Assembly: GCA_963807165.1 (NCBI GenBank)
Contig: CAWDZM010000001.1
Location: forward strand, 32,214 to 96,213
DNA from: an uncultured bacterium
GTDB lineage: Bacteria > Patescibacteriota > Minisyncoccia > UBA6257 > 2-01-FULL-56-20
Direction of reading: 5' to 3'
DNA length: 64,000 bases
Positions within the stretch are counted from its first letter, which is position 1, and every line of letters starts with the position of its first letter. A program made the position numbers and the translations under genes. The notes below the pieces were generated by a model. That model was not told where the DNA came from. It searched no databases and was given only the letters and a program-made list of their open reading frames with translations. Positions 404 through 64,000 of this stretch are shown in pieces.

Positions 404-1471
404 ATGACTGAAATGGACACACCTTATGTTCGTAACGATATAGAAAAATTTAGGCTGGTTGTGGAAGAGCTCGAGGTTTGTCGTGAAATGATAAAGTCGG
501 CATCTCACGTGAAATCTCGCACGGCTCTCATCTTAATGGATAATCTTGCAGAGATTTTGGCTATAAGAATTTATGAAGCAGCTTTTAAAAGGGATAATAC
601 TTTCGCTCTAGTAGAAAGGCCTCGTATAAATTTTGCAGAAATTAGGGATGCAAAAGGTGATTTTTCTAGAAAGATATCTCTCTTAGAAAAATTGGGGGCT
701 ATTTCTAAATATGATGCCAGCGTATTAAGAGTCAGTCATCAATATAGGAATGCGGCTTTTCATAGGGATACTCACAACGTATCTATAATAAGAAGCTTGG
801 CGATGGTTTGTTTTCGGAGTGTGTGCCATCTCTTTGTCGTCAATTATAATATCGGGGTTTCGTATGGCGGGATGGAGTCTTTGAGATGGCTCGTCCCGTA
901 TGCCAAAAATACAACTCGTTTGAATTTTCGGGAGGATTCTCAAATAATTGCGGACAAGCTCTTGAGGGGGATAACAAAGTCAGCAGCAACTCTGCGGAAG
1001 CATTTTGCGAAAGATATCCTTGAGCGCTTGAAGGATATCGGAAGCATAAGAAATGAAATCGGCTATGGTAATCCCGACTTGCTTTTGAATGAATTTTTGA
1101 GGTTGGCAGAATTCGACGAAGAACATCCATTTGCAAAATATGTTGAATATTATGCGTTTACCAGGAGTCTCGCTACGGCACAGCTAGATTCTCTAAAGGT
1201 GCAAGGCCAATTATTTGACCTTAAAGAAAAGGCTGATAAAAAAATGGAAGAGGATTTGAAACTATTCAAAGCGACTGTTTCTACAAAGATACTCGATGAG
1301 GCAGTAAATTTTTTGCGAAGGAGTGAATCTTTAAAATCGGCGGATAAAATCCTTTTTGCTTATCAGCAGCTGGATTTTAAACTCTCAAGATTCGAGTATT
1401 ATCTTTGGAAATTGGAAATAGAGTGGGACGAGCGTGTCCAAATGGAGATAGATTTTGCGAGGGGGAAATAG
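404..1471 (+). CDS. hypothetical alpha-helical protein with a HEPN-like Rx4H motif (YRNAAFH); putative RNase
   Basis: 355-aa ORF. AAAGGTGGG Shine-Dalgarno-like sequence 5 nt upstream. R-N-A-A-F-H matches the HEPN Rx4-6H signature. Low GC. Confidence 0.45.
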   Translation: MTEMDTPYVRNDIEKFRLVVEELEVCREMIKSASHVKSRTALILMDNLAEILAIRIYEAAFKRDNTFALVERPRINFAEIRDAKGDFSRKISLLEKLGAISKYDASVLRVSHQYRNAAFHRDTHNVSIIRSLAMVCFRSVCHLFVVNYNIGVSYGGMESLRWLVPYAKNTTRLNFREDSQIIADKLLRGITKSAATLRKHFAKDILERLKDIGSIRNEIGYGNPDLLLNEFLRLAEFDEEHPFAKYVEYYAFTRSLATAQLDSLKVQGQLFDLKEKADKKMEEDLKLFKATVSTKILDEAVNFLRRSESLKSADKILFAYQQLDFKLSRFEYYLWKLEIEWDERVQMEIDFARGK

Positions 1472-1473
1472 GG

Positions 1474-1479
1474 TATAAT
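1474..1479 (+). promoter_or_regulatory. TATAAT -10 hexamer 6 nt upstream of ATG 1486 (leaderless-type)
   Basis: Exact TATAAT directly after the stop of the upstream gene, 6 nt before the ATG. Confidence 0.4.
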
Positions 1480-1485
1480 AAAAAT

Positions 1486-1980
1486 ATGGATCCAAAGCAC
1501 GTTGTCTTTGTTAAGGATTTAATTAAAGGCAAAATTGCTGAGATTATTTTTGAGCAAATGTTTCGGGAATCGGAGAGGTACACCATCCTTCATTCCGGCT
1601 ATGAGTATACACTTCCCGAGCTTGCTCAATATCAACACCTCGCAGAAGTGAAGGCAGTGATTGAAAATATCAGGAACGCTCCAGATTTTGTTCTTATTTC
1701 ACAAGATAAGAGAGAGGTTTATTTAGTGGAAGTTAAATATCGAACACGTCGTTATCCCGAGGATTTGGCGAGAATCTGCGAGGAAACCTTAAAGACTTGG
1801 AATCCTTGCTGGCTTTTCATAGCTTCTCCTGATGGCTTTTTCTTCGAGCCGTGCAATTCCGTCTTGAATAATGACGGAAGGATAGGGGAATTGGTTAACG
1901 AGAGATTCGTTGACCATGCCATTAGGGATGAGTATCTGGAATTATTAAAAGAATTAGAGGTCGGGAATAACGTGCATTAA
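1486..1980 (+). CDS. PD-(D/E)xK-fold nuclease-like protein, 164 aa
   Basis: APDFVLI...EVYLVEVKYR gives a PD...ExK pattern typical of the restriction-endonuclease/Hjc-like fold. The Met at 1486 is preferred over the overlapping track start at 1405. Confidence 0.45.
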   Translation: MDPKHVVFVKDLIKGKIAEIIFEQMFRESERYTILHSGYEYTLPELAQYQHLAEVKAVIENIRNAPDFVLISQDKREVYLVEVKYRTRRYPEDLARICEETLKTWNPCWLFIASPDGFFFEPCNSVLNNDGRIGELVNERFVDHAIRDEYLELLKELEVGNNVH

Positions 1981-2020
1981 GCACGTCTTATGGTTTTAGT
2001 ACGGCAGTATTTTCAGGCTA

Positions 2021-3700
2021 TTAGGTAGAAGAAGCGGTCGTAGTAGAAGCTTCGCCCCAGGGGAGAAGATAATTTAATAATTCAGGAGAATTTAATAGCG
2101 GGCCAAGAGCGGTATAGTAGGCGTCCGCAGCTGCTTTTACTTTATTTATATCAGTGGTGTTCTGATAGACATTATTGAATAATGCTGTTTGGTAAAGTAT
2201 GTTTAGCATCACAGAATTAGAATCTATGGCTAATGCTTGTTTATATTTCGCGGCGCCTAATAAGTATTCACCCTGAATCGTATATAGCTTTCCCCAGTAC
2301 ATATAGGGGGTTGGGTCGTTTGGATATTTGTTTGCTAGCCATGAGAAAAATGTATTGAAGTTTGTAGTGGTGCTGCTCTCTACAAAATAGCCCAAAGATT
2401 GATCCAGTTTATCTTCATTGTAGGTACTTACATCGAGGACGCCTGTTAATCCCGTGCTTTCAAGAAGTTTGAGTACCTGCTCTTTTGGTAGTGAAGATGC
2501 TTGCGTAAAATATTGAGCCTCAAAAGATTGTAGGAATGACTGATAAGTTATGTCGTTCACATAAAGTCTGTTATCAAACATAGACTTCAAATACTCTTCT
2601 GCTAAAGGATAATTATTTTCCTGAGAATATATTTCTGCCATTTGACCATCAACATAGGCGTTCCAAGTGCCTGCGTCATCATTTATATAAGCTAAGAATT
2701 GTTTCTTTATGTTCGGGTCTCCAATGCCTTGTCCGACATTTTGGAGGTGTTGGTCGAGGAGTGTAAATTCATTTTGTGAATTTTGCATTAAAGCCAGAGC
2801 GACATCGTAGTTTTGCTTCTCGGTGTACGCAGGAACGAAAAATTGTTCTAGCATAGCTTTATCAACTGCCCCAATATAAAAACCCTCATCATGGGGCGAT
2901 AAAACGCCCAATTTAACTAATCTATTAATCCGATTCTGCACATCAAAATAGGCGTATATATTGGAATCAGGGAAAAATAGCGGGAATCTTACAACGGGAT
3001 TTAGATATGTAATAAGGCCAGTCGAATCTGTTTCGACGAGATTGGCCATTCCGAGGCAATTAGAATCTTGAAGGATAAAATTATCTATGGGTTTTTTTTG
3101 TAACCCATAGTATCGGAGAACTGACGGGGGGATAGAAGTCTGTATAAGTGTGAGCGGAGGGATGGATTCTGAAGTGTCGGTGAAATCAATTGTTGGAGGT
3201 TGGCTTAGTACATAGGAGCTTGATTTGAGAGGGGTCGAAAGAAGTGCGTCATAAATTCCTTGATTGATATTTTGGTCTATCTCTGTATTTGATGTAAATG
3301 AGCCAGAAGAAGTTAGCGTTAGTGGTTGAATGAAAGAAACTGTAAATATTTGATTTGGATCGCAACTATTTCCGTGCAAATATGCGATTTGTTGATGGAC
3401 TATATAAGTAGAAACAAGCGCGATCAAAAGAAGAAAAACATAGAATATTTTTTTATTCCTATTTAGTTGTTTATATAAAGCGAGTGCGGTGAGGGCGATG
3501 ATTCCTAAAAAAGTTAAGGTGATAAATATATATCTGTTGAAAATGAGAAAAAGGTAATAATTTATAACAGTAAATCCGGGTGCTAAAAATGAGAAAACAT
3601 TTGTGAAGAGAGCTAATAAAAAAGCCGAAATTAACCCACCAATAACGGTGATGAGAATGCCCTGCCGAAACTCTTTTGTCTTTCGAGGTTTTTTCTCCAT
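2021..3700 (-). CDS. integral membrane protein: N-terminal multi-TM region plus a large extracytoplasmic TPR-like/Tyr-rich domain
   Basis: 559-aa ORF. About 4 hydrophobic helices at the N-terminus. C-terminal repeats resemble TPR. Low GC. Confidence 0.55.
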   Translation of the reverse strand: MEKKPRKTKEFRQGILITVIGGLISAFLLALFTNVFSFLAPGFTVINYYLFLIFNRYIFITLTFLGIIALTALALYKQLNRNKKIFYVFLLLIALVSTYIVHQQIAYLHGNSCDPNQIFTVSFIQPLTLTSSGSFTSNTEIDQNINQGIYDALLSTPLKSSSYVLSQPPTIDFTDTSESIPPLTLIQTSIPPSVLRYYGLQKKPIDNFILQDSNCLGMANLVETDSTGLITYLNPVVRFPLFFPDSNIYAYFDVQNRINRLVKLGVLSPHDEGFYIGAVDKAMLEQFFVPAYTEKQNYDVALALMQNSQNEFTLLDQHLQNVGQGIGDPNIKKQFLAYINDDAGTWNAYVDGQMAEIYSQENNYPLAEEYLKSMFDNRLYVNDITYQSFLQSFEAQYFTQASSLPKEQVLKLLESTGLTGVLDVSTYNEDKLDQSLGYFVESSTTTNFNTFFSWLANKYPNDPTPYMYWGKLYTIQGEYLLGAAKYKQALAIDSNSVMLNILYQTALFNNVYQNTTDINKVKAAADAYYTALGPLLNSPELLNYLLPWGEASTTTASST

Positions 3701-5466: not shown

Positions 5467-5853
5467 ATGGAGAAAGATTTTTCGAAATGGCACGACTTTA
5501 AAAGTAAACTTCAAAAGATCGACAAAAGATTCTATTTTCAAGAACGGGGTATTTGGCTCTGCTCAGTGGGGTTAAATCTTGGCCACGAAGAGGATGGGAA
5601 ACGAGATCAATTTTTAAGACCAGTTATTGTTTTTAAAAAATTTGATGACGATACTTTTTGGGGCATTCCGCTAACGAGTCAAGTGCACGGAGGCGTTCGC
5701 TACTTCCAATTTTTATTTGGTAATCGTATTGCGGTTGCAATGCTATCTCAGATGCGTCTTTTTGATAGAAAACGCTTTATCCGTAGGATCGGCGAAATGT
5801 CCAACTCAGAATTTGATAGATTAAAATCGCAATTGCGCAACATGATGCAATAA
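5467..5853 (+). CDS. MazF/PemK-family endoribonuclease toxin-like protein
   Basis: Aligns to MazF: RGIWLCSVGLNLGHEEDGKRDQFLRPVIVF...GIPLTSQ versus GDLIWVDFDPTKGSEQAGHRPAVVLSP...CVPCTTQ. 128 aa. Confidence 0.6.
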   Translation: MEKDFSKWHDFKSKLQKIDKRFYFQERGIWLCSVGLNLGHEEDGKRDQFLRPVIVFKKFDDDTFWGIPLTSQVHGGVRYFQFLFGNRIAVAMLSQMRLFDRKRFIRRIGEMSNSEFDRLKSQLRNMMQ

Positions 5854-15992: not shown

Positions 15993-16574
15993 ATGCCTAA
16001 TAAAAAGCAGTATTTTTTCGTCGGAATTATAACTATAATAGTTATTATCGCTGTGGGAGCCGATTTTTTTTGGCAGTCACGTCGGAATAATCCTCAGACG
16101 AATCCAGTAAGCATATTTAATATTTCAGCTCCTGCGGGATGGAAAAAACTTTCTCCTGCGGTATCTCCGACCGATCAGCCATTAACGTCTCAGACGATAG
16201 ATTTTGAAAAAATATCGACTTCGACAAATAGCAACAGAGTAGAACGGGCAATAGAAGTCAATTTTGAAAATTATGGAATCTCCATAGGGCCTTCGCTGAA
16301 TGGAGCCGGTTTATATGAATCTTTTGTTTCGGCGCAAACGTGGAATGTGGTTAACGGCTATATTATTTTGGGAATAACCCGCCCGAATCAGGTGATGTAT
16401 ATCGTTGTCGCTCCAAATGGAAATTATGATTATACTTATTCATTTTCTCTGACTTCCGCCCAAGCCGATTTGCCGGGGTTAAGCAACGCTCTAGTTGATT
16501 TAGCAGATGTACAAACTTTACAGGCAATGGCTCGGAATTTTACAGAAAGTCTTCCGGGTAGTATGTCCCAGTAA
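15993..16574 (+). CDS. secreted/membrane-anchored hypothetical protein; paralog of the next gene
   Basis: N-terminal TM anchor. Shared motifs with 16633-17253: PAGW, TWNVVNGYIILG versus LWDVVNNKLVLG, and YTYSFSL versus DEYSFQL. Confidence 0.5.
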   Translation: MPNKKQYFFVGIITIIVIIAVGADFFWQSRRNNPQTNPVSIFNISAPAGWKKLSPAVSPTDQPLTSQTIDFEKISTSTNSNRVERAIEVNFENYGISIGPSLNGAGLYESFVSAQTWNVVNGYIILGITRPNQVMYIVVAPNGNYDYTYSFSLTSAQADLPGLSNALVDLADVQTLQAMARNFTESLPGSMSQ

Positions 16575-16632
16575 GTTATTCGCCAGGGCGTGAAGTAGAG
16601 TCGAATTTTTTCTTCTACGTAGGATCAATTTC

Positions 16633-17253
16633 ATGCAAAATAAAAAAATATATTTGTTGATTCTAAGCTTAGCGCTAGTCGGCATTGGGAGCCTTGTCTT
16701 AGGACAGCATCTTTCCCATCAAGCAACGCAAACAGCATCCTTAGTATCGGCGCCTTCCATACCGAGTATTCCTACCCCCGCAGGATGGTATTTATGGGGA
16801 AGGGAGCATTTACCTAATTATCCCAATGCGACAGATACTACAGTCAATTATATGACCTTCGGCGATCAACCTATTAATAATACGGGCAATAATACTTCGA
16901 CATCTATCGTTGTTACCGCCAATGGAATCACTGATGGAAACGGTAACCCGACATCGACCGATATTGGGTGGGCATGGCTCCGCGGCATCTTGGATGCAGG
17001 AGAGAGTCAAACATCGACTCAACTTTGGGATGTCGTGAATAATAAGCTAGTGCTTGGAGAAGTAAGTCTCAACCCCTCGGGAAGATATATGCTTACTTAT
17101 TATCTCATCTATGGCGGCGATGAGTATTCATTCCAGCTTATTCCGTCTCCGTTTCTCCCTTCGTCGACCCAATACAATCAAGCGAACATCATCAATAGTC
17201 CTGACGCTCAGGTATTACGTGAAGTAGTAAAAGAGGTTGCTGGGCAGATATAA
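16633..17253 (+). CDS. secreted/membrane-anchored hypothetical protein; paralog of the previous gene
   Basis: Signal anchor. Ser/Thr/Asn-rich. Motifs shared with 15993-16574. Confidence 0.5.
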   Translation: MQNKKIYLLILSLALVGIGSLVLGQHLSHQATQTASLVSAPSIPSIPTPAGWYLWGREHLPNYPNATDTTVNYMTFGDQPINNTGNNTSTSIVVTANGITDGNGNPTSTDIGWAWLRGILDAGESQTSTQLWDVVNNKLVLGEVSLNPSGRYMLTYYLIYGGDEYSFQLIPSPFLPSSTQYNQANIINSPDAQVLREVVKEVAGQI

Positions 17254-22087: not shown

Positions 22088-22166
22088 GGGATTTAGAAAA
22101 ACACCCTCTTTTTTCACCTAGTGATAAGAATCAACGGTGAAAAAAGAGGGTGTTTTTCTAAATCCC
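22088..22166. terminator. 31-bp perfect inverted repeat (AT-rich stem, ~17-nt loop) downstream of the PCD gene
   Basis: Arms GGGATTTAGAAAAACACCCTCTTTTTTCACC / GGTGAAAAAAGAGGGTGTTTTTCTAAATCCC are exact reverse complements. Acts as a bidirectional terminator-like hairpin. Confidence 0.5.
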
Positions 22167-24996: not shown

Positions 24997-25437
24997 TTGC
25001 TTTTATCAGCGACCGCCGTTTTACTTAAAAAAATGAAGATGGTATATATATATATGAATATGGAAAAGATAAACTCAACATTCGAATCAGAGCCAGATTC
25101 AATCGATATCGAAGATCCTGAAACGGCGCGGGAATTTATTCGTCAACGCATGGAAAAAGATGGAGATTTGCCGACCGTAACAGTTCCGATGGAATATGCC
25201 GAAGAAGCACGCAAGGGAATTGTGCCTCATACCACATGGATATATGACGCGCTCATTGCTGGTACACTAGGAAAGAAGCCTTATATGCCAGACAATTCTC
25301 CTCGAGCTTTATTTCGTATTAAGGCAAAACCCGAAGATGTGATGCCGCGATTCACTGGCCCTGATAAGCATTTTCACGGGGTGGTGGTATTCAAAAAACC
25401 TATCGCTCCAGACTTACTCGAAGAAGTGTACGCATAA
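24997..25437 (+). CDS. hypothetical protein (start uncertain, possibly 25034 or 25054)
   Basis: ORF track. Low GC. Confidence 0.35.
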   Translation: MLLSATAVLLKKMKMVYIYMNMEKINSTFESEPDSIDIEDPETAREFIRQRMEKDGDLPTVTVPMEYAEEARKGIVPHTTWIYDALIAGTLGKKPYMPDNSPRALFRIKAKPEDVMPRFTGPDKHFHGVVVFKKPIAPDLLEEVYA

Positions 25438-25467
25438 AAAAATCGCTCCTCAAGAGCGATTTTTTTA
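25436..25467. terminator. bidirectional intrinsic terminator between convergent genes
   Basis: ATCGCTC-CTCAA-GAGCGAT hairpin flanked by an A-run and a T-run. Confidence 0.55.
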
Positions 25468-25476
25468 TGAACGTTA

Positions 25477-30216: not shown

Positions 30217-30221
30217 AGGTA

Positions 30222-30263
30222 AAAACAAAAGCCCCACCTTTTAAAAGGTGGGGCTTTTGTTTT
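30222..30263 (+). terminator. intrinsic terminator (AAAACAAAAGCCCCACC-TTTTAAAA-GGTGGGGCTTTTGTTTT)
   Basis: 17-bp arms plus T-run. Shares the GCCCCACC/GGTGGGGC arms with the hairpin at 35549-35670. Confidence 0.7.
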
Positions 30264-30291
30264 TGTATACTTTTAAAGTACACTACAGAAA

Positions 30292-35548: not shown

Positions 35549-35670
35549 AGCCCCACCTCTTAAAAGGGCGTCTCGGAGCCGCGAAGGCGGCGAGAGCCGA
35601 GGCGGCCGGTCAGCAGCCGCGACTCTTAGGAGTCCCGCGGGAGAACGCCGTACCTTTTAAGAGGTGGGGC
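35549..35670. repeat. GC-rich ~86-nt structured element (35567-35652) in the loop of an 18-bp AT-rich terminator hairpin; copy 1 of a 3-member family
   Basis: Arms GCCCCACCTCTTAAAAGG / CCTTTTAAGAGGTGGGGC are exact reverse complements. The insert is ~90% identical (reverse complement) to 54388-54470. Confidence 0.6.
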
Positions 35671-45303: not shown

Positions 45304-45346
45304 ATCAGTATTTTAAAATCACAAATTGTGATTTTAAAATACTGAT
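45304..45346. repeat. 43-bp near-perfect palindrome ATCAGTATTTTAAAATCACAA-A-TTGTGATTTTAAAATACTGAT; copy A
   Basis: Exact reverse-complement arms seen directly. Lies between convergent glycosyltransferase and recG. Confidence 0.6.
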
Positions 45347-49153: not shown

Positions 49154-49184
49154 ATTCTGAAATCACAAATTGTGATTTCAGAAT
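49154..49184. repeat. 31-bp palindrome ATTCTGAAATCACAA-A-TTGTGATTTCAGAAT; copy B
   Basis: Shares the core AAATCACAAATTGTGATTT with copy A. Outer arms covary. Confidence 0.6.
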
Positions 49185-52254: not shown

Positions 52255-54358
<2,104 letters not shown>

Positions 54359-54369
54359 GGGGAAGAAGA

Positions 54370-54488
54370 GATAACAAAAAGACCCATATACTTCGGGGAC
54401 GGCGTTCCAGCCTGCTGGCTGGCCGCCTTGGCTCTCAGCGCCTTCGCGCTTCCGAGACACCCCTCAGCACATGGGTCTTTTTGTTATC
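54370..54488. repeat. GC-rich 83-nt element (54388-54470) in the loop of an 18-bp AT-rich hairpin right after the fusA stop; copy 2, inverted relative to copy 1
   Basis: Arms GATAACAAAAAGACCCAT / ATGGGTCTTTTTGTTATC are exact reverse complements. Insert matches reverse complement of 35567-35652. Confidence 0.6.
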
Positions 54489-54511
54489 TTCAGATATTTG
54501 GGGAATAATTT

Positions 54512-54584
54512 GCCCTCGTGGTCCAATGGATAGGGCGTCTCGCTTCTAGCGAGTACGATGCGGGTTCAACTCCTGCCGAGGGCG
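54512..54584 (+). tRNA. tRNA-Arg (anticodon TCT)
   Basis: Acceptor GCCCTCG/CGAGGGC, D-arm GTCC-AATGGATA-GGGC, loop CTTCTAG, T-arm GCGGG-TTCAACT-CCTGC. Confidence 0.8.
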
Positions 54585-54611
54585 CGGATTCTGAAAGTGA
54601 GTATAAAATAT

Positions 54612-54640
54612 AAAGACGTCTATAAAAAATAGACGTCTTT
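54612..54640. terminator. bidirectional terminator AAAGACGTCTA-TAAAAAA-TAGACGTCTTT
   Basis: Perfect 11-bp inverted repeat between the tRNA-Arg (+) and GIY-YIG gene (-) 3' ends. Confidence 0.5.
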
Positions 54641-54656
54641 ATTATGTCCACCCTAC

Positions 54657-54944
54657 CTATCCGACTTTCTGGTTGCAAGAAGGCCGAAGCTCAAGAATTA
54701 ATTCTTTTTCTCGATTCGATGGATCTCCCGATATAACTTCGCCAACCCAATGCGTGGGTATCTCCCGAGTTATATACTGGTTATCTCCATTCAAGTGAGC
54801 CAGTAGTCGCGTGCGGATATCTCCCTTACCAACATAGACCCACCTTCCTTGCTTAAAGAGACCGTACACGCCATTTTGATTTAGGTTTAGCGCTTCAATA
54901 TCTTGACGGCTAAAAGCTCGTGGCGTTTGTTGAATAAATGACAT
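54657..54944 (-). CDS. standalone GIY-YIG nuclease-domain protein (YhbQ/UPF0213-like)
   Basis: GVYGLFKQGRWVYVGKGDIRTRLLAHL gives GIY...YIG plus the conserved Arg. Glu in REKELI. Low GC. Confidence 0.65.
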   Translation of the reverse strand: MSFIQQTPRAFSRQDIEALNLNQNGVYGLFKQGRWVYVGKGDIRTRLLAHLNGDNQYITREIPTHWVGEVISGDPSNREKELILELRPSCNQKVG

Positions 54945-55203
54945 ATATCTTTTTATGGTGAATATGATCGACCTTTTGTTATTCGTAGGTGTTACAATAA
55001 TTGATCTAATATTAGCCCCTTATTATTGTATGTCAAGCTTGTCAAGTGTTCAATAATGTTTATACTAAAAGATGAAGATTTGGCGCTAGTATGAAAGAAG
55101 TCTATTTTAATAAGGACTATAAGCATTTGGCGGAATATTAAAAAATGATAAAAACTAAATAGACAGACATATATTTCCCCCGTAAGATTACTATAAATAA
55201 AAA

Positions 55204-55986
55204 ATGCCAAGTTTCAACGATCTAAAATTGGAGGATTGGAAAAATTCAGAAATCTGGACCGATAGTCTCTGGATTATTTCTGAAAGAGATAAAAGCGGGA
55301 AACACGATGGGTTTTACCACGGGAATTTTGTCCCTCAAATTCCTCGTCAATTAATTTCTCGCTATACAAAGGAAAATGAAGTTGTATTTGATCCATTTGT
55401 AGGAAGTGGTACAACCGCTTACGAAGCCGAAGAGCTGGGTAGACATTTTATCGGGGTAGATATCCAATCCAAGTTGATTAAATATATTAGAGAGAAAGTT
55501 GATGACAAGAAGTTTTTTTCAGAATTGATTGTTGGTGATAGTTCAGATGAAAACATTATCTCTACGATTTCTGATATTTTAAAAAAGAAGAAGAAAAGAA
55601 GTATTCACTTTGCGATATTGCATCCACCGTATGCCAATATCATTAAATTTAGCAATAACAAAGCAGATTTATCCAACGCAAAATCATTAAAGGATTTTCT
55701 CGATAGATTTTCTCTAGTTGTTAAGAATACGGTTTCTTTATTAGAAAAAAATCGATATTTAGCGGTCGTTATTGGGGATAAATATCAACAAGGGCAGTGG
55801 GTTCCGCTCGGTTTTTACTGCTTAAATGAGGTGCAGAAGCAAGGATTAACTTTAAAGAGTATAATTATAAAGAATATGGAAGGGAATAGGGGGAAGCAAA
55901 ATAAGGAGGGCATCTGGCGCTATCGAGCGCTATCGAGCGATTACTATATTTTTAAGCACGAATATATTTTTATATTTAAGAATTAA
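55204..55986 (+). CDS. N6-adenine/N4-cytosine DNA methyltransferase with permuted motif order (FxGxG before DPPY-like)
   Basis: Motif I FDPFVGSGTTAYEAEELGRHFIGVDI at residues ~70-95. Motif IV ILHPPY at ~136. Low GC. Confidence 0.7.
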   Translation: MPSFNDLKLEDWKNSEIWTDSLWIISERDKSGKHDGFYHGNFVPQIPRQLISRYTKENEVVFDPFVGSGTTAYEAEELGRHFIGVDIQSKLIKYIREKVDDKKFFSELIVGDSSDENIISTISDILKKKKKRSIHFAILHPPYANIIKFSNNKADLSNAKSLKDFLDRFSLVVKNTVSLLEKNRYLAVVIGDKYQQGQWVPLGFYCLNEVQKQGLTLKSIIIKNMEGNRGKQNKEGIWRYRALSSDYYIFKHEYIFIFKN

Positions 55987-55990
55987 AGTC

Positions 55991-56896
55991 GTGAGCGATA
56001 TCAAGGATCAATTGTCGGTGGTACTAGCGAAAAAGATTTTTGGAAATTCCAAGGTTGCGTTGGAATATTTAAAGCGACTGAATACTATCAAGGAAATTAA
56101 TGGCATCACAAGTAGAACTCTTACGCGCGGAGTTCGTGTGGGGTTGGAGGTGCTGGGTATCAATGCAGATAAAGATATCTGGCAAATAGTTGTTGAAAGC
56201 TGGGACTATGAATCTAGCAAAAAGATTATTCGAGGTATATTTAAGGAGGGAAATAAGTATAGGGTGGGAGTGGAAGCGGATGTGGCGATGGGAATTCTTA
56301 TTAAAGAGTGGGAAGCGTTGAGTTTGGGTAAAATCGAATGGCCATTCTCTCAGGGGGATTTTGATGGCTTTGTTCAGGGAATTAATAATTCTAGTAATGA
56401 ACTTGGGGTAATTAAGGATGAAAAAGTAAAAGCGGCGGCGGTGAAATATCGAAGAATTAAAGAAATTAATACTGTCAGAAACGATTTTATAGAGACTTTG
56501 ATTTTTGAAAAAAATGAAAATATTATTCCGACTCTAAGCCATCGAAGGGGAGTCGACTTCTTTATCGACGGAGTTCCTTTTGACCAAAAAGTTGCAAAAA
56601 GTCCAACAAATCAATTTAAAGTAAAATTCGGTGATGATTGGAAAAATGAGGCAATAAAAAATCCAGCATTAGTTGCTGAATATTTATATAAATATCAAGA
56701 CGAGGGTCGTTTCGGTGCTGATCCGCGCTTGCTTGTCGTTTATTTAGATGAAGATATTTCCATACAAAAAATTAGAGAAATTTTAGGGAAGATTGACCTT
56801 AGTGATCCTATGGAAATTCAATTTGAATTTAGCCACGAAGTCGGAGGGGCCAAAAACTATAAAACAAAATGTTTTGTAATACTGCTTCATAATTAA
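55991..56896 (+). CDS. putative type II restriction endonuclease (PD-(D/E)xK-like) between two methyltransferase genes
   Basis: Position within the R-M cassette. Candidate catalytic stretch RRGVDFFIDGVPFDQKVAK (D...D.K). GTG start. Confidence 0.35.
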   Translation: MSDIKDQLSVVLAKKIFGNSKVALEYLKRLNTIKEINGITSRTLTRGVRVGLEVLGINADKDIWQIVVESWDYESSKKIIRGIFKEGNKYRVGVEADVAMGILIKEWEALSLGKIEWPFSQGDFDGFVQGINNSSNELGVIKDEKVKAAAVKYRRIKEINTVRNDFIETLIFEKNENIIPTLSHRRGVDFFIDGVPFDQKVAKSPTNQFKVKFGDDWKNEAIKNPALVAEYLYKYQDEGRFGADPRLLVVYLDEDISIQKIREILGKIDLSDPMEIQFEFSHEVGGAKNYKTKCFVILLHN

Positions 56897-56906
56897 CACA
56901 CAATAT

Positions 56907-57974
56907 ATGAACTATATCGGGAGTAAATTATCTCTACTAAATTTTTTAGAAACATCCATCGATTCTGTTACCAAGGGAGAGCAGAAGACATTTTTAGATC
57001 TTTTTGCTGGCACCGGTGCGGTTGGTCTCCATTTTAAAAAGAAGGGGTACAAAGTCTATGCTAACGATTTGCAATATTATAGCTTTGTTTTAAATCGCCA
57101 TTATATAGGTAATCATAAGGAAATGGAGTTTGAGGGATTAGCAAATATAATCCCAGGAATAACGAGTGCTAAAAAGAGCGATAAAAAAAATCTTGTGTGT
57201 GAGTATTTGGGTTCGATAAAAGGAACAAAAGGATTTATTTATAAGAACTATTGTCCGGGAGGCACGGTCAATAGTTCGGTCCAGAGATTATATTTTTCAG
57301 ATGAAAATGGAATGAAATGCGATTCAATCAGGCAGAAAATTGAACAATGGAAAAAGAAATTACAGATTACAGATAATGAATATTACTTTCTTCTCGCTTC
57401 ATTATTAGAATCGATCGATAAACATGCTAATACCGCATCGGTCTACGGTGCTTTTTTAAAAAAAATAAAGAAGTCGGCTCTTAGGCCAGTCGTTTTAAAG
57501 CCAGCGAATTTATTTATTAATGACCATGAACATAAAGTGTTTAATGAAAATATAAATACTTTGGTAAAAAAAGTAAGCGGAGATATTTTATATCTTGATC
57601 CGCCATATAACCAGAGACAATATGCGACCAATTATCATATACTTGAAACTATCGCAAGATACGATAATCCTAAAATTCACGGTAAGACAGGATTGAGAGA
57701 TTATAAATCTCAAAAGTCTTTATACTCTTCGCGTCCCCAGGTTAAAAAAGCTTTTAGAGAACTTATATCAAACGCAAAAGTTAAATATATCTTTTTGAGC
57801 TATAACAACGAAGGGTTAATGACTATGCAAGATATAAAAGAGATTATGGGCACGAGAGGGGAATATGGTTTCTTTGCTCAGAAATATGGGCGTTTTAAAG
57901 CCGATAAAGATTCAAACCGGGGATACAAAGATAATAAAACAACTGAATATCTCCACTATGTTGTTTGTAAATAA
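56907..57974 (+). CDS. Dam-like (alpha-class) N6-adenine DNA methyltransferase
   Basis: MNYIGSKLSLL...FLDLFAGTGAVG N-terminus (motif X/I) and ILYLDPPYN motif IV, the D12-class architecture. Confidence 0.8.
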   Translation: MNYIGSKLSLLNFLETSIDSVTKGEQKTFLDLFAGTGAVGLHFKKKGYKVYANDLQYYSFVLNRHYIGNHKEMEFEGLANIIPGITSAKKSDKKNLVCEYLGSIKGTKGFIYKNYCPGGTVNSSVQRLYFSDENGMKCDSIRQKIEQWKKKLQITDNEYYFLLASLLESIDKHANTASVYGAFLKKIKKSALRPVVLKPANLFINDHEHKVFNENINTLVKKVSGDILYLDPPYNQRQYATNYHILETIARYDNPKIHGKTGLRDYKSQKSLYSSRPQVKKAFRELISNAKVKYIFLSYNNEGLMTMQDIKEIMGTRGEYGFFAQKYGRFKADKDSNRGYKDNKTTEYLHYVVCK

Positions 57975-58680: not shown

Positions 58681-59538
58681 ATGGCAAAGAAAAAAGCGAA
58701 GCAGAATACTCATCCAACGATCTTTGAAGAGAAAGAGGTTCGAAGGGTGTGGCGTAACGAAAAGTGGTATTTCTCTGTTTCTGACGTGGTGCAGGCGCTG
58801 ACCGATTCGAATGATGTGCGGCAGTATATAAAAAAGATGAGAACGCGTGATGCGGAGCTGTCTCGCAACTGGGGTACAATTTGTACCCTGGTTCAAATAA
58901 CCTCAAAAGATGGTAAAAAGCACGAGGAAAATATGTCGGATATTGAAGGCATCTTCCGTATCATTCAATCTATCCCTTCCCCGAAGGCCGAGCCATTTAA
59001 GCGTTGGCTTGCCAAAGTTGGCAAAGAAAGAATCGAGGAAATAGCGGATCCTGAGTTGGCGGTGACGCGGGCTAAAGAGATCTACGACAAAAAGGGATAT
59101 CCCAAAGATTGGGTTGATAAGCGCATGCGTGGCATTGCCGTTCGGAATACGCTTACCGACGAATGGAAATCGCGGGGAGCGTCGATGCGTTTTGAGTTTG
59201 CGATTTTAACCGACGAGATTTACAAGGCGGCGTTCGATAAAACCGCGAAAGAATACATGAAGCATAAGGGCTTGGATAAAAAAGCGGGTGATAATTTGCG
59301 CGACCATATGGGCGACATCGAATTGATCCTGACGATGCTTGGAGAAGCTACGACAACCAAGCTCAGCACGGAAAAGGATTCGCATGGATTGGAAGCGTTA
59401 AAGAAAGATGCACGCGTCGGGGGAAGCGTTGCCGGCAGGACTCGAAAAGATATCGAACAGCAAACGGGCAAAAAGGTAATTTCAAACGAAAATTTTAAGA
59501 ATAAGAAGCTTCTGAAAGGTAAAAAAATTCGCAAATAA
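58681..59538 (+). CDS. Bro-N-domain protein (phage antirepressor/DinD-like)
   Basis: YFSVSDVVQALT...IPSPKAEPFKRWLAKVGKERIEE matches the Bro-N consensus. The C-terminus resembles DinD. Confidence 0.65.
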   Translation: MAKKKAKQNTHPTIFEEKEVRRVWRNEKWYFSVSDVVQALTDSNDVRQYIKKMRTRDAELSRNWGTICTLVQITSKDGKKHEENMSDIEGIFRIIQSIPSPKAEPFKRWLAKVGKERIEEIADPELAVTRAKEIYDKKGYPKDWVDKRMRGIAVRNTLTDEWKSRGASMRFEFAILTDEIYKAAFDKTAKEYMKHKGLDKKAGDNLRDHMGDIELILTMLGEATTTKLSTEKDSHGLEALKKDARVGGSVAGRTRKDIEQQTGKKVISNENFKNKKLLKGKKIRK

Positions 59539-62567: not shown

Positions 62568-63767
62568 ATGGCAGAAAAAGAAAAGTTCGACCGGTCCAAG
62601 CCGCACCTTAACGTAGGTACGATTGGCCACGTCGATCATGGCAAGACCACGTTGACCGCAGCGATCACCCACGTGCTCTTTATGAAGGGCTGGATCAAAA
62701 AAGAAGAGAATGTTTCACAGATCGACAATGCTCCGGAAGAGAAGGCGCGTGGTATCACCATTGCGTTGCATCACTCGGAGTACAACTCGGAGAAGCGCCA
62801 CTACGCGCACGTTGATGCTCCGGGTCACGCCGATTACATCAAGAACATGATCACCGGTGCCGCCCAGATGGACGGTGCAGTGCTCGTCGTTGCAGCGACC
62901 GACGGCCCGATGCCGCAGACCCGCGAGCACATTTTGCTCGCCCGTCAGGTAGGCGTGCCTTCGATCATCGTGTTCCTCAACAAGTGCGACATGGTGGATG
63001 ATCCGGAATTGATCGACCTCGTGGAGTCCGAAGTTCGTGAGCTCCTCACGAAGAACGGCTTCCCAGGCGACACTGCTCCGGTGATCCGCGGTTCGGCGCT
63101 CAAGGCGTTGAACTCGACCGATGCTGATTCCGCAGATGCCAAGCCGATCCTTGACCTCGTCAAGGCGATGGACGACTTCTTCCCGGATCCGGTTCGTGAA
63201 CTCGACAAGCCGTTCCTTATGCCTGTTGAAGATATCTTCTCGATCGAAGGTCGCGGTACGGTCGTCACGGGACGCATCGAGCGCGGCATCATCAAGGTGA
63301 ACGATGAAATCGAAGTCGTCGGCCTTAAGCCGACCGCAAAGACCGTCGTCACCGGTATCGAAATGTTCAACAAGAGCTTGGATCAGGGCCAGGCAGGCGA
63401 TAACGCAGGTTTGCTTCTCCGCGGTCTCAAGAAAGAGGACGTAGAGCGCGGACAGGTGTTGGCCAAGCCGGGCACGGTGACCCCGCACTCGGAGTTCGAG
63501 GGCGAGATCTACGTGCTCTCGAAAGAAGAGGGTGGCCGTCACTCTCCGTTCTTCAAGGGCTACAAGCCGCAATTCTATATCCGTACCACGGACGTGACCG
63601 GAGAGGTTACGCTTCCGGAAGGAATGGAAATGGTCATGCCGGGTGATACCGTCAAGATCACCGTCAAGCTCATCACCCCGGTCGCTTTGGAAGACAAGAT
63701 GCGTTTCGCCATCCGCGAGGGCGGCAAGACCGTCGGCGCCGGCGTCGTGACGAAGATCATCAAGTAG
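62568..63767 (+). CDS. tuf: elongation factor Tu
   Basis: [18 protein letters not shown] and NKCD motifs. 399 aa. Confidence 0.95.
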
Positions 63768-63872
63768 CAATATAAAACCGCCTTACGGGGACGGGTCGCG
63801 TTCTACTGAACGCGCTCTAACGCTCGGCACCTACGTGCCTCCGCGATTCCCCTTAAAGGCGGTTTTATATTG
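63768..63872. repeat. GC-rich 71-nt element (63785-63855) in the loop of a 17-bp AT-rich hairpin right after the tuf stop; copy 3, same orientation as copy 2
   Basis: Arms CAATATAAAACCGCCTT / AAGGCGGTTTTATATTG. Insert starts CGGGGACGGGTCGCGTTC and ends TCCGCGATTCCCCT, similar to the ends of copy 2. Confidence 0.5.
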
Positions 63873-63972
63873 CTTATATTTTTAATGTTCAGTCACGACG
63901 CCGGCGTCTCTGGAGATATGAGGAGGGATCAGACTAAGGTCGCATTTCAGAAGAATATAGAATCTTGTTACA

Positions 63973-64000
63973 TTCTAAAATCGCAATCTGTGATTTTAGA
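63973..64000. repeat. palindrome TTCTAAAATCGCAATCTGTGATTTTAGA; copy C, possibly cut by the window end
   Basis: Same AAATC(A/G)CAA..TGTGATTT core as copies A and B. Confidence 0.45.

Follow-up and report, generated by a model that had tools for sequence, protein, structure and literature searches.

Canonical intrinsic terminators have stems of 5-12 bp and loops of 3-8 nt. Hairpins and palindromes also figure in several kinds of mobile DNA, including the PATEs derived from IS200/IS605 elements and the insertion sequences IS1397 and ISKpn1, which target palindrome loops (in the case of IS1397, the loops of extragenic palindromes). The attC sites of integrons, which are associated with gene cassettes and an integrase, are imperfect palindromes that carry R'' and R' sites (RYYYAAC ... 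GTTRRRY) at their ends. The REP, BIME and REPIN elements of the Proteobacteria are dispersed extragenic repeats that lie at the 3' ends of genes, form hairpins in transcripts and evolve in concert, and they have been proposed to terminate transcription or stabilise mRNA while also being mobile (PMC3733652; PMC3184786). The conserved unit of a REP is a palindrome of 20-40 nt with a GTAG or CGTC head, and it is moved by a RAYT transposase (PMC3733652; PMC3184786). Bacterial MITEs such as Correia, RUP, ERIC and Nezha have their own terminal inverted repeats and direct target duplications (PMC2229807), and the GC clusters of yeast mitochondria are simple palindromes with target-site preferences that behave as mobile DNA (PMC4478555).

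The structure described here is a long hairpin at the end of the tuf gene in a 64-kb window (the whole stretch of DNA that was analysed), and it is a member of a dispersed family of GC-rich cassettes of about 72 nt in a Paceibacteria (CPR) clade. The EF-Tu encoded in the window is 96% identical to the EF-Tu of Paceibacterota/Minisyncoccia known from metagenome-assembled genomes, and the host is therefore a CPR bacterium. The CPR bacteria, or Patescibacteria, have tiny genomes with little non-coding DNA, and to our knowledge almost nothing is known about how their transcripts are ended and stabilised.

The hairpin at the end of tuf

The locus consists of the coding sequence, two nested pairs of arms and a structured core:

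62568-63767, + strand: tuf (EF-Tu) coding sequence with Pfam GTP_EFTU, D2 and D3 domains; its TAG at 63765-63767 lies within the hairpin
63737-63751, + strand: outer 5' arm CGCCGGCGTCGTGAC, inside the tuf coding sequence; a 15-nt perfect complement of 63892-63906, paired in the minimum-energy fold
63766-63784, + strand: inner 5' arm AGCAATATAAAACCGCCTT, A-rich and then GC-rich, starting in the tuf stop codon
63785-63855, + strand: core, a 71-nt GC-rich three-way junction (covariance model at 85.9 bits, folding, and covariation in 82 distinct homologues)
63787-63791 with 63848-63852, + strand: P1 of the core
63793-63795 and 63797-63803 with 63808-63817, + strand: P2 of the core, loop UACU
63821-63823 with 63843-63845, and 63826-63830 with 63835-63839, + strand: P3 of the core, loop CUAC
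63856-63874, + strand: inner 3' arm AAGGCGGTTTTATATTGCT, with a U-rich tract from 63863 to 63883
63892-63906, + strand: outer 3' arm GTCACGACGCCGGCG, reverse-complementary to the tuf codons that encode GAGVVT

The inner arms form 19 perfect pairs (63766-63784 with 63856-63874) and enclose 71 nt (63785-63855); the calculated chance expectation for an arm pair of this kind is about 1e-4 per 64 kb. Two of the 19 pairs fall in the stop codon, and without these bases the 5' arm is CAATATAAAACCGCCTT (63768-63784), with its complement AAGGCGGTTTTATATTG at 63856-63872. The 17-bp arms of the original prediction are thus correct, except that it had placed a 1-nt gap between them and the TAG, while the arm in fact starts at 63768, directly after the stop codon. 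The 71-nt GC-rich insert that it had described between the arms was recovered at the same length, and the label is accurate as to composition; the insert is more than filler, however, being a three-way junction with covariation support.

The inner arms have, as judged from their sequence, the anatomy of an intrinsic terminator, in which a GC stem (CCGCC.../...GGCGG) is followed by a U-run (UUUUAUAUUGCUUAUAUUUUU). A simple terminator scan did not call this hairpin, because the 71-nt structured core takes the place of the loop. The region from 63760 to 63885 folds at -61.8 kcal/mol (z -9.2), a value that was matched by none of 200 shuffled sequences, and the outer 15-nt pairing extends the full palindrome to 170 nt with a folding energy of -102 kcal/mol (z -11.7). 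Folded alone, the core reaches -32.9 kcal/mol, and its minimum-energy structure accounts for 63% of the ensemble. Taken as a whole, the structure is built like an oversized intrinsic terminator or 3'-end stem-loop in which a pre-folded GC clamp stands in for the loop.

Two further features lie downstream of the hairpin. The segment from 63907 to 63960 (GTCTCTGGAGATATGAGGAGGGATCAGAC...) is conserved in the related loci L003 and L207, and may be an rpsJ leader or promoter region. The palindrome that had been predicted next (copy C) is indeed present at 63978-63996, 106 nt away. It is one of three occurrences in the window (45316-45334, 49160-49178 and 63978-63996, against 0.01 expected) of a 19-nt palindrome, AAATCACAA-N-TTGTGATTT, which is conserved as well in the tuf-rpsJ interval of L207 and which looks like the putative operator of a dimeric regulator.

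A dispersed family of cassettes

A first covariance model was built from seven copies of the cassette and run over the whole window with filters off. It returned exactly three hits, the next best match scoring only 10 bits:

54369-54489, + strand: fusA sister copy; arms 54369-54398 and 54460-54489, core 54392-54466; 92.5 bits
63784-63855, + strand: tuf copy, span of the covariance-model hit; 85.9 bits
35540-35680, - strand: FMN-reductase sister copy; core 35562-35658, with an extra hairpin in P2; 66.5 bits
35682-36263, - strand: FMN-reductase gene, the upstream gene of the third copy

The ends said to be common to the tuf and fusA copies are captured by this model, at 85.9 and 92.5 bits respectively, and the middle that had been called diverged between them turns out to consist of compensatory changes in two stems. 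The third copy, earlier noted at 35549-35670, lies between the convergent genes xseB (+) and FMN reductase (-), and its orientation is opposite to that of the tuf and fusA copies, such that it is sense to FMN reductase and not to xseB. The extra hairpin inside its P2 (35562-35658, - strand), of about 25-30 nt, has counterparts in two metagenome copies (L103, 188-284; L091, 428-530), arguing that the core tolerates nested insertions.

A degenerate 24-nt pattern, derived from the 3' half of the core, was used to screen metagenome contigs, and at least 120 matching stretches were found in peat, bog, soil and groundwater samples. Among the first 80 loci checked, 77 were true members; the covariance model gave 88 + 39 hits in the metagenome loci, and the family comprises at least about 129 distinct copies in contigs from peat, soil and groundwater. 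The original prediction of a repeated GC-rich element with hairpin arms right after tuf is thereby borne out, with more than 120 homologues elsewhere. Sequence conservation in the 3' half of the core is overstated by this procedure, since that half was fixed by the search pattern in most homologues; the S-S and R-Y positions of the pattern were free to mismatch, yet they almost never do. Judging by how densely copies occur in the window and related contigs, we estimate their number at tens per genome.

A richer covariance model (R2) detected a distant copy, at 39 bits, after tuf in the Yonathbacteria genome L024, which model R1 had missed, and another in L028. Run over 644 kb of non-CPR bacterial DNA, R2 gave no hits; these negative controls came from a tuf-based GTDB scan in which the matches listed were mostly relatives of no more than 83% identity and non-CPR bacteria. 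The 24-nt pattern had no hit in viral contigs, and the 170-nt tuf region matched no phage or plasmid record. A scan of the whole window against Rfam 15 at gathering thresholds returned six tRNAs only and no family for the element, and a scan of 63700-64000 up to E = 10 gave generic hairpin hits to microRNA models, well below thresholds. Searches of the literature found no description of this element.

Structure and covariation of the core

According to the covariance model, the core consensus is a compact three-way junction in which P1 closes the element. P1 is GGGG/CCCC or an A/U variant and leads into an ACGG junction. The long stem of P2 includes a conserved U·G pair, varies freely in its upper part and is capped by a C-UGCU-G loop. 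P3 combines an R·A mismatch, in which the A is invariant and R is a purine, with two stems (CNC/GNG and one of 5 bp), a UC/UCC internal loop and a CUUC loop. Only P1, at 4-7 bp, is common to the copies as an inverted repeat.

The pairing was evaluated with a 21-pair model over 82 distinct sequences, in which 96.6% of the cells were standard pairs and 18 of the 21 pairs showed changes on both sides. None of 500 shuffled controls matched this result, and shifting the partner columns dropped the pairing to 36-66%. Two pairs added to P3 covary through four pair types (GC 24, AU 18, CG 10, UA 8), and in the resulting 23-pair model 94.8% of the cells are paired and both-side changes are found in 20 of the 23 pairs.

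The unpaired bases are also strongly conserved, namely the ACGG junction, the C-UGCU-G and CUUC loops, the CUCCG-GA bases and the invariant A opposite R, and are retained from one subfamily to the next as well as in the distant copies of L024 and L028. Conservation of this kind suggests that the cassette may have an additional protein partner. Core pairing is more complete on the sense strand than on the antisense strand (96.6% versus 91.1%), and two conserved wobbles (U·G in 64 of 82 sequences and G·U in 35 of 82) pair on the sense strand only. Elsewhere in the core, G·U (11) is no more frequent than A·C (15). Free energy proved uninformative as a test of strand, because the predicted antisense RNA is the more stable one (-38.8 versus -35.6 kcal/mol).

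Several known motifs were considered for the core and rejected. A K-turn in P3 lacks the required GA before the C-stem, and an anti-Shine-Dalgarno mimic is disfavoured because CCUCC is not conserved. The known ribozymes (hammerhead, twister, pistol, hatchet and HDV-like) gave no Rfam match, and the archaeal bulge-helix-bulge intron motif and tRNA-like folds were likewise set aside.

Arms, orientation and gene context

Nearly every copy has inverted-repeat arms on either side of the core. Their aligned length has a median of 29 positions and reaches 66 at most; in about 40% of copies the arms are shorter than 25 bp. Arm sequences are unrelated between loci, that is, they are locus-specific, and their mismatches carry no bias of the RNA type (A·C 114 versus G·T 69). 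The arms start at the stop codon, or overlap the stop and the last codons, and they usually include an A-tract and a U-tract. A TTTT run occurs within 50 nt on the 3' side of the core in 56 of 94 copies, compared to 19 of 94 on the 5' side, and a clear U-tract is absent in about 40% of copies.

Orientation was scored by long open reading frames ending next to the core, since calling by the longest open reading frame was misled by antisense frames in GC-rich genes (the L001 tuf gene was miscalled in this way). When open reading frames of at least 150 codons ending within 60 nt of the core were considered for 129 distinct elements, 51 elements had such frames in the sense direction only and 7 in the antisense direction only (p = 2e-9), and frames of at least 300 codons gave 41 sense and 2 antisense; these counts include orthologous loci from related genomes and are not fully independent. 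The median distance from stop codon to core is 20 nt (10th to 90th percentiles, 16-34 nt), most distances being 14-26 nt; the copies that are antisense, or not near any stop codon, make up about 10%.

Convergent gene pairs (L088 and L107) each have a separate sense copy for either gene, a few hundred bases apart (within 400 nt), which argues that orientation follows the gene and not the replication strand. The GC skew of the window keeps one sign throughout, and cassette copies lie on both strands. The upstream genes are housekeeping genes, including dnaB, atpG, PBP, RNase J, ssb, dnaN, secY, ligA, groEL, corA, ychF, rpsR, fusA and tuf. The downstream genes are functionally unrelated to the upstream ones, an arrangement that fits transcription-unit boundaries.

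Exchange, gain and loss of cassettes

The history of the element can be followed at the tuf locus of related genomes. It is found after the tuf stop codon in L001, L002, L003, L210 and L211, where EF-Tu is 89-96% identical, and more distantly in L024. The sequences of the tuf arms and internal stems differ in L001, L002, L210 and L211, with the pairing kept. In L207-L209 (EF-Tu 92% identical), tuf is followed by a 32-bp perfect palindrome with a 21-nt loop, which keeps only the GACGG start of the core. The L207 palindrome spans 2701-2790, and a complete core copy lies about 250 nt further downstream at 2948-3020. In L215 and L217 (EF-Tu 86-88% identical), rpsJ begins 9-72 nt after tuf without a hairpin, arguing that the hairpin and core were gained within the clade.

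Cores that are 97-99% identical occur with unrelated arms at non-orthologous loci (atpG, corA, a 533-codon ORF and a 700-codon ORF), whereas the median identity of cores at orthologous loci is only 75%. The arms at dnaB are near-identical in L157, L149 and L143, but the core is of type A in L157 and of type B in the other two. At the atpG locus, the 25 nt of arm compared between L135 and L165 are identical and both variable core stems differ. Furthermore, the tuf core of the window matches the fusA core of L001, and the fusA core of the window matches the tuf core of L001. The boundaries of type-A cores are sharp and constant (TTCGGGG...CCCCTCA), and several subfamilies are found together on one contig (L124). 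The presence of the same core types at unrelated genes and of different types at orthologues demonstrates, at the level of sequence comparison, that cassettes are exchanged among loci.

In two comparisons of filled and empty sites, the unit of insertion or deletion was the whole hairpin including its arms, with no direct duplication, so that in these alignments hairpins are seen to be gained or lost as units. The idea that a core is inserted into the loop of an existing terminator is weakened by the same comparisons, in which arms and core come and go together. A target-site duplication, suggested by a look-alike palindrome at 30221-30264, was dropped as an explanation because the repeats are perfect when inverted and mismatched when direct.

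The outer arm of the tuf hairpin gives some indication of how arms may arise. Its 5' half decays without compensating changes in L002 and L207, and a segment homologous to the outer 3' arm is found downstream of tuf in L002, L003 and L207. The decay without compensation indicates that the outer arm is probably the relic of an inverted duplication. Since the arms include reverse complements of conserved coding ends, we infer that at least part of each arm may have been made by inverted duplication of existing upstream sequence. Hairpins that lack a core are also found at gene ends in the window (22088-22166, 30221-30264, 25433-25469 and 54610-54642), and these too are perfect palindromes of unusual length (arms, 14-31 bp); the making of palindromes therefore seems to be general to this lineage. 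The arms at 30221-30264 closely resemble those of copy 1 (AAAAGCCCCACCT.TTAAAAGG).

RNA end or mobile DNA

The explanation that we consider best, and to which we would give about an even chance, is that the element is a structured cassette which is dispersed, exchanges copies between loci and caps 3' hairpins of a terminator-like kind, with a role at RNA 3' ends that we infer to be termination or stabilisation. In this model, the cassette would be transcribed as the end of the mRNA and would fold first, keeping the A/U-rich arms in register while the long stem zips up. The stem would then either terminate transcription at the U-tract or block 3' exonucleases, and could re-form after each terminating ribosome melts its base. 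The arms would be generated from local sequence, by inverted duplication via template switching or fold-back synthesis. The strong orientation bias, the sense-only wobbles, the terminator anatomy, the deep conservation of the loops and the persistence of the element behind tuf all speak for a role at the RNA level. The lack of a G·U excess in the arms or the rest of the core, and the finding that the antisense strand folds at least as well, are neutral or speak against it. An RNA ending at the U-tract would have no use for pairing that reaches beyond it into the coding sequence, which points to a process at the DNA level. Near-identical cores at different loci are also a signature of selfish repeats, for which a host function is not needed.

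A purely selfish, non-autonomous mobile DNA comparable to a MITE or PATE is a rival explanation, though a somewhat unlikely one. Here a transposase encoded elsewhere, such as one of the HUH/Y1 type, would recognise the P2 and P3 hairpins as single-stranded DNA, or the element would be spread by gene conversion; the tips of gene-end hairpins would simply be safe sites, and any effect on RNA would be incidental. Such a parasite would account for the 97-99% identical cores at unrelated loci, the swapping of core types at orthologues, the presence or absence of whole hairpins between relatives and the coexistence of several subfamilies on the L124 contig. It would also be consistent with the sharp, constant boundaries of type-A copies, with the absence of RNA-type bias in the arm mismatches, and with the apparently degenerate derivative after tuf in L207-L209, in which GACGG alone survives and has been made palindromic. 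However, the copies share no terminal inverted repeats and show no evident target-site duplication, no transposase was found among the ten low-GC window ORFs scanned, and no split or autonomous copy turned up among the 80 loci checked. Orientation tracks the gene even in convergent pairs, unlike that of single-stranded DNA transposons of the lagging strand, which keep to one DNA strand. Selfish spread also fits poorly with retention of the element after tuf out to the Yonathbacteria and with conservation of loop and junction bases across deep divergence. Alternatively, the RNA itself would be functional, either because a perfect stem of at least 20 bp acts as an RNase III-type site that releases a stable small RNA of about 100 nt, or because the three-way junction docks a lineage-specific RNA-binding protein and so provides a common signal on many housekeeping mRNAs. 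The strongly conserved unpaired bases, which include those of the distant L024 and L028 copies, and the strong preference for the sense orientation argue in this direction. The median aligned arm, at 29 positions, is long enough for a double-strand-specific nuclease, RNase III needing a stem of about this length. On the other side, there is no match to an Rfam family, the arms of about 40% of copies fall short of 25 bp, the search pattern makes the 3' half look more conserved than it is, and the rapid swapping of core types speaks against a finely tuned specific ligand, such that we regard this possibility as improbable.

A very stable structure that begins at the stop codon might instead stall or slow terminating ribosomes and thereby tune protein output. 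Modulation of this kind was reportedly described in 2015 by Liang, Rudd and Deutscher for REP elements of E. coli that lie no more than about 15 nt from a stop codon. In most copies of the cassette the stop codon falls within the hairpin or at its foot, the stop-to-core distance is tight (14-26 nt) and the arms often overlap the last codons. The same spacing nevertheless follows from compact genomes in which terminators abut stop codons, the host genes include tuf, fusA, groEL and atp genes that need high output, and about 10% of copies are antisense or far from any stop, which together make a modulator of translation very improbable. A reading that combines mobility with function is quite unlikely but can be stated explicitly: the cassette would be a new kind of mobile unit that spreads specifically to gene 3' ends in the direction of transcription and builds its arms from the adjacent coding end by fold-back copying, possibly via the self-primed 3' end of a terminated transcript, and would also give many housekeeping mRNAs of an ultra-small genome a common 3' cap recognised by a protein.

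Strong covariation together with strict orientation implies either a lineage-specific machinery of gene expression or an unusually well-adapted genomic parasite, and the cassette offers a tractable case for the origin and tolerance of long perfect palindromes. The covariance model could join annotation libraries, so that the 3' ends of genes and the orientation of transcripts are marked in these uncultured genomes.

Other features of the window

In the window, fusA falls into two frames (52255-53121 and 53105-54358) owing to a single additional G in CTTGGATGCC near 53105-53110. The L001 fusA is also fragmented, and that of L211 is intact at 703 aa; the split reflects either a true frameshift or an indel introduced by sequencing. 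A low-GC island at 54512-57971 (GC about 0.35, GC3 0.31-0.35) lies directly 3' of tRNA-Arg(tct) and encodes two DNA methyltransferases (N6_N4_Mtase and D12 class) along with an unknown 301-aa ORF. The island is probably a restriction-modification system that was acquired and became integrated at the tRNA gene. A MazF/PemK-like toxin ORF (5467-5850) and an ORF with a Bro-N domain (58681-59535) are both located in low-GC3 patches, and further low-GC3 ORFs with no Pfam match are found at 404-3700 and 15993-17250.

Comparison with known systems

Integron attC sites were rejected as a parallel for the tuf hairpin, because its arm ends carry neither RYYYAAC nor GTTRRRY and the host genes of the family are housekeeping genes such as tuf, fusA and dnaB. 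The elements of the PATE and IS1397 type are similar to the cassette in their subterminal hairpins, their lack of target duplication and their affinity for single-stranded or hairpin DNA. The cassette differs from them in that it appears to be oriented by the gene and not by the replication strand, in that the whole hairpin is gained or lost, and in that no transposase was found nearby among the ten low-GC ORFs scanned. Like the cassette, bacterial MITEs are small, non-autonomous intergenic repeats that can fold as RNA and may affect termination or stability (PMC2229807), but the inverted repeats of the cassette differ at each locus, and its flanks are inverted rather than direct, with no direct duplication. 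The GC clusters of yeast mitochondria are also short, GC-rich, structured and mobile-like repeats, found in the AT-rich non-coding DNA of a reduced genome; they are organellar, however, are not located at hairpin tips and have no known link to gene orientation (PMC4478555).

By analogy, the cassette would work most like the REP/BIME elements and the intrinsic terminators. Like intrinsic terminators, it has a GC stem with an A-tract 5' of it and a U-tract directly after it, and it lies right after stop codons in the sense orientation, but its loop is a 71-nt structured module and its stems, at 15-60 bp, often reach into the coding sequence. With the REP, BIME and REPIN elements it has in common a dispersed, multi-copy and extragenic distribution at gene 3' ends, the formation of hairpins, concerted evolution, and a proposed role in termination or stabilisation combined with mobility. 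In contrast to a REP, the unit of the cassette is a 72-nt three-way junction at the loop that starts with TTCGGGG or TTCGGGT; it has no GTAG or CGTC tag, its arms are locus-specific, and a non-systematic look turned up no RAYT. The combination of a conserved apex with apparently locally made arms reverses the architecture of REPs and MITEs, and is novel within the extragenic-repeat kind.
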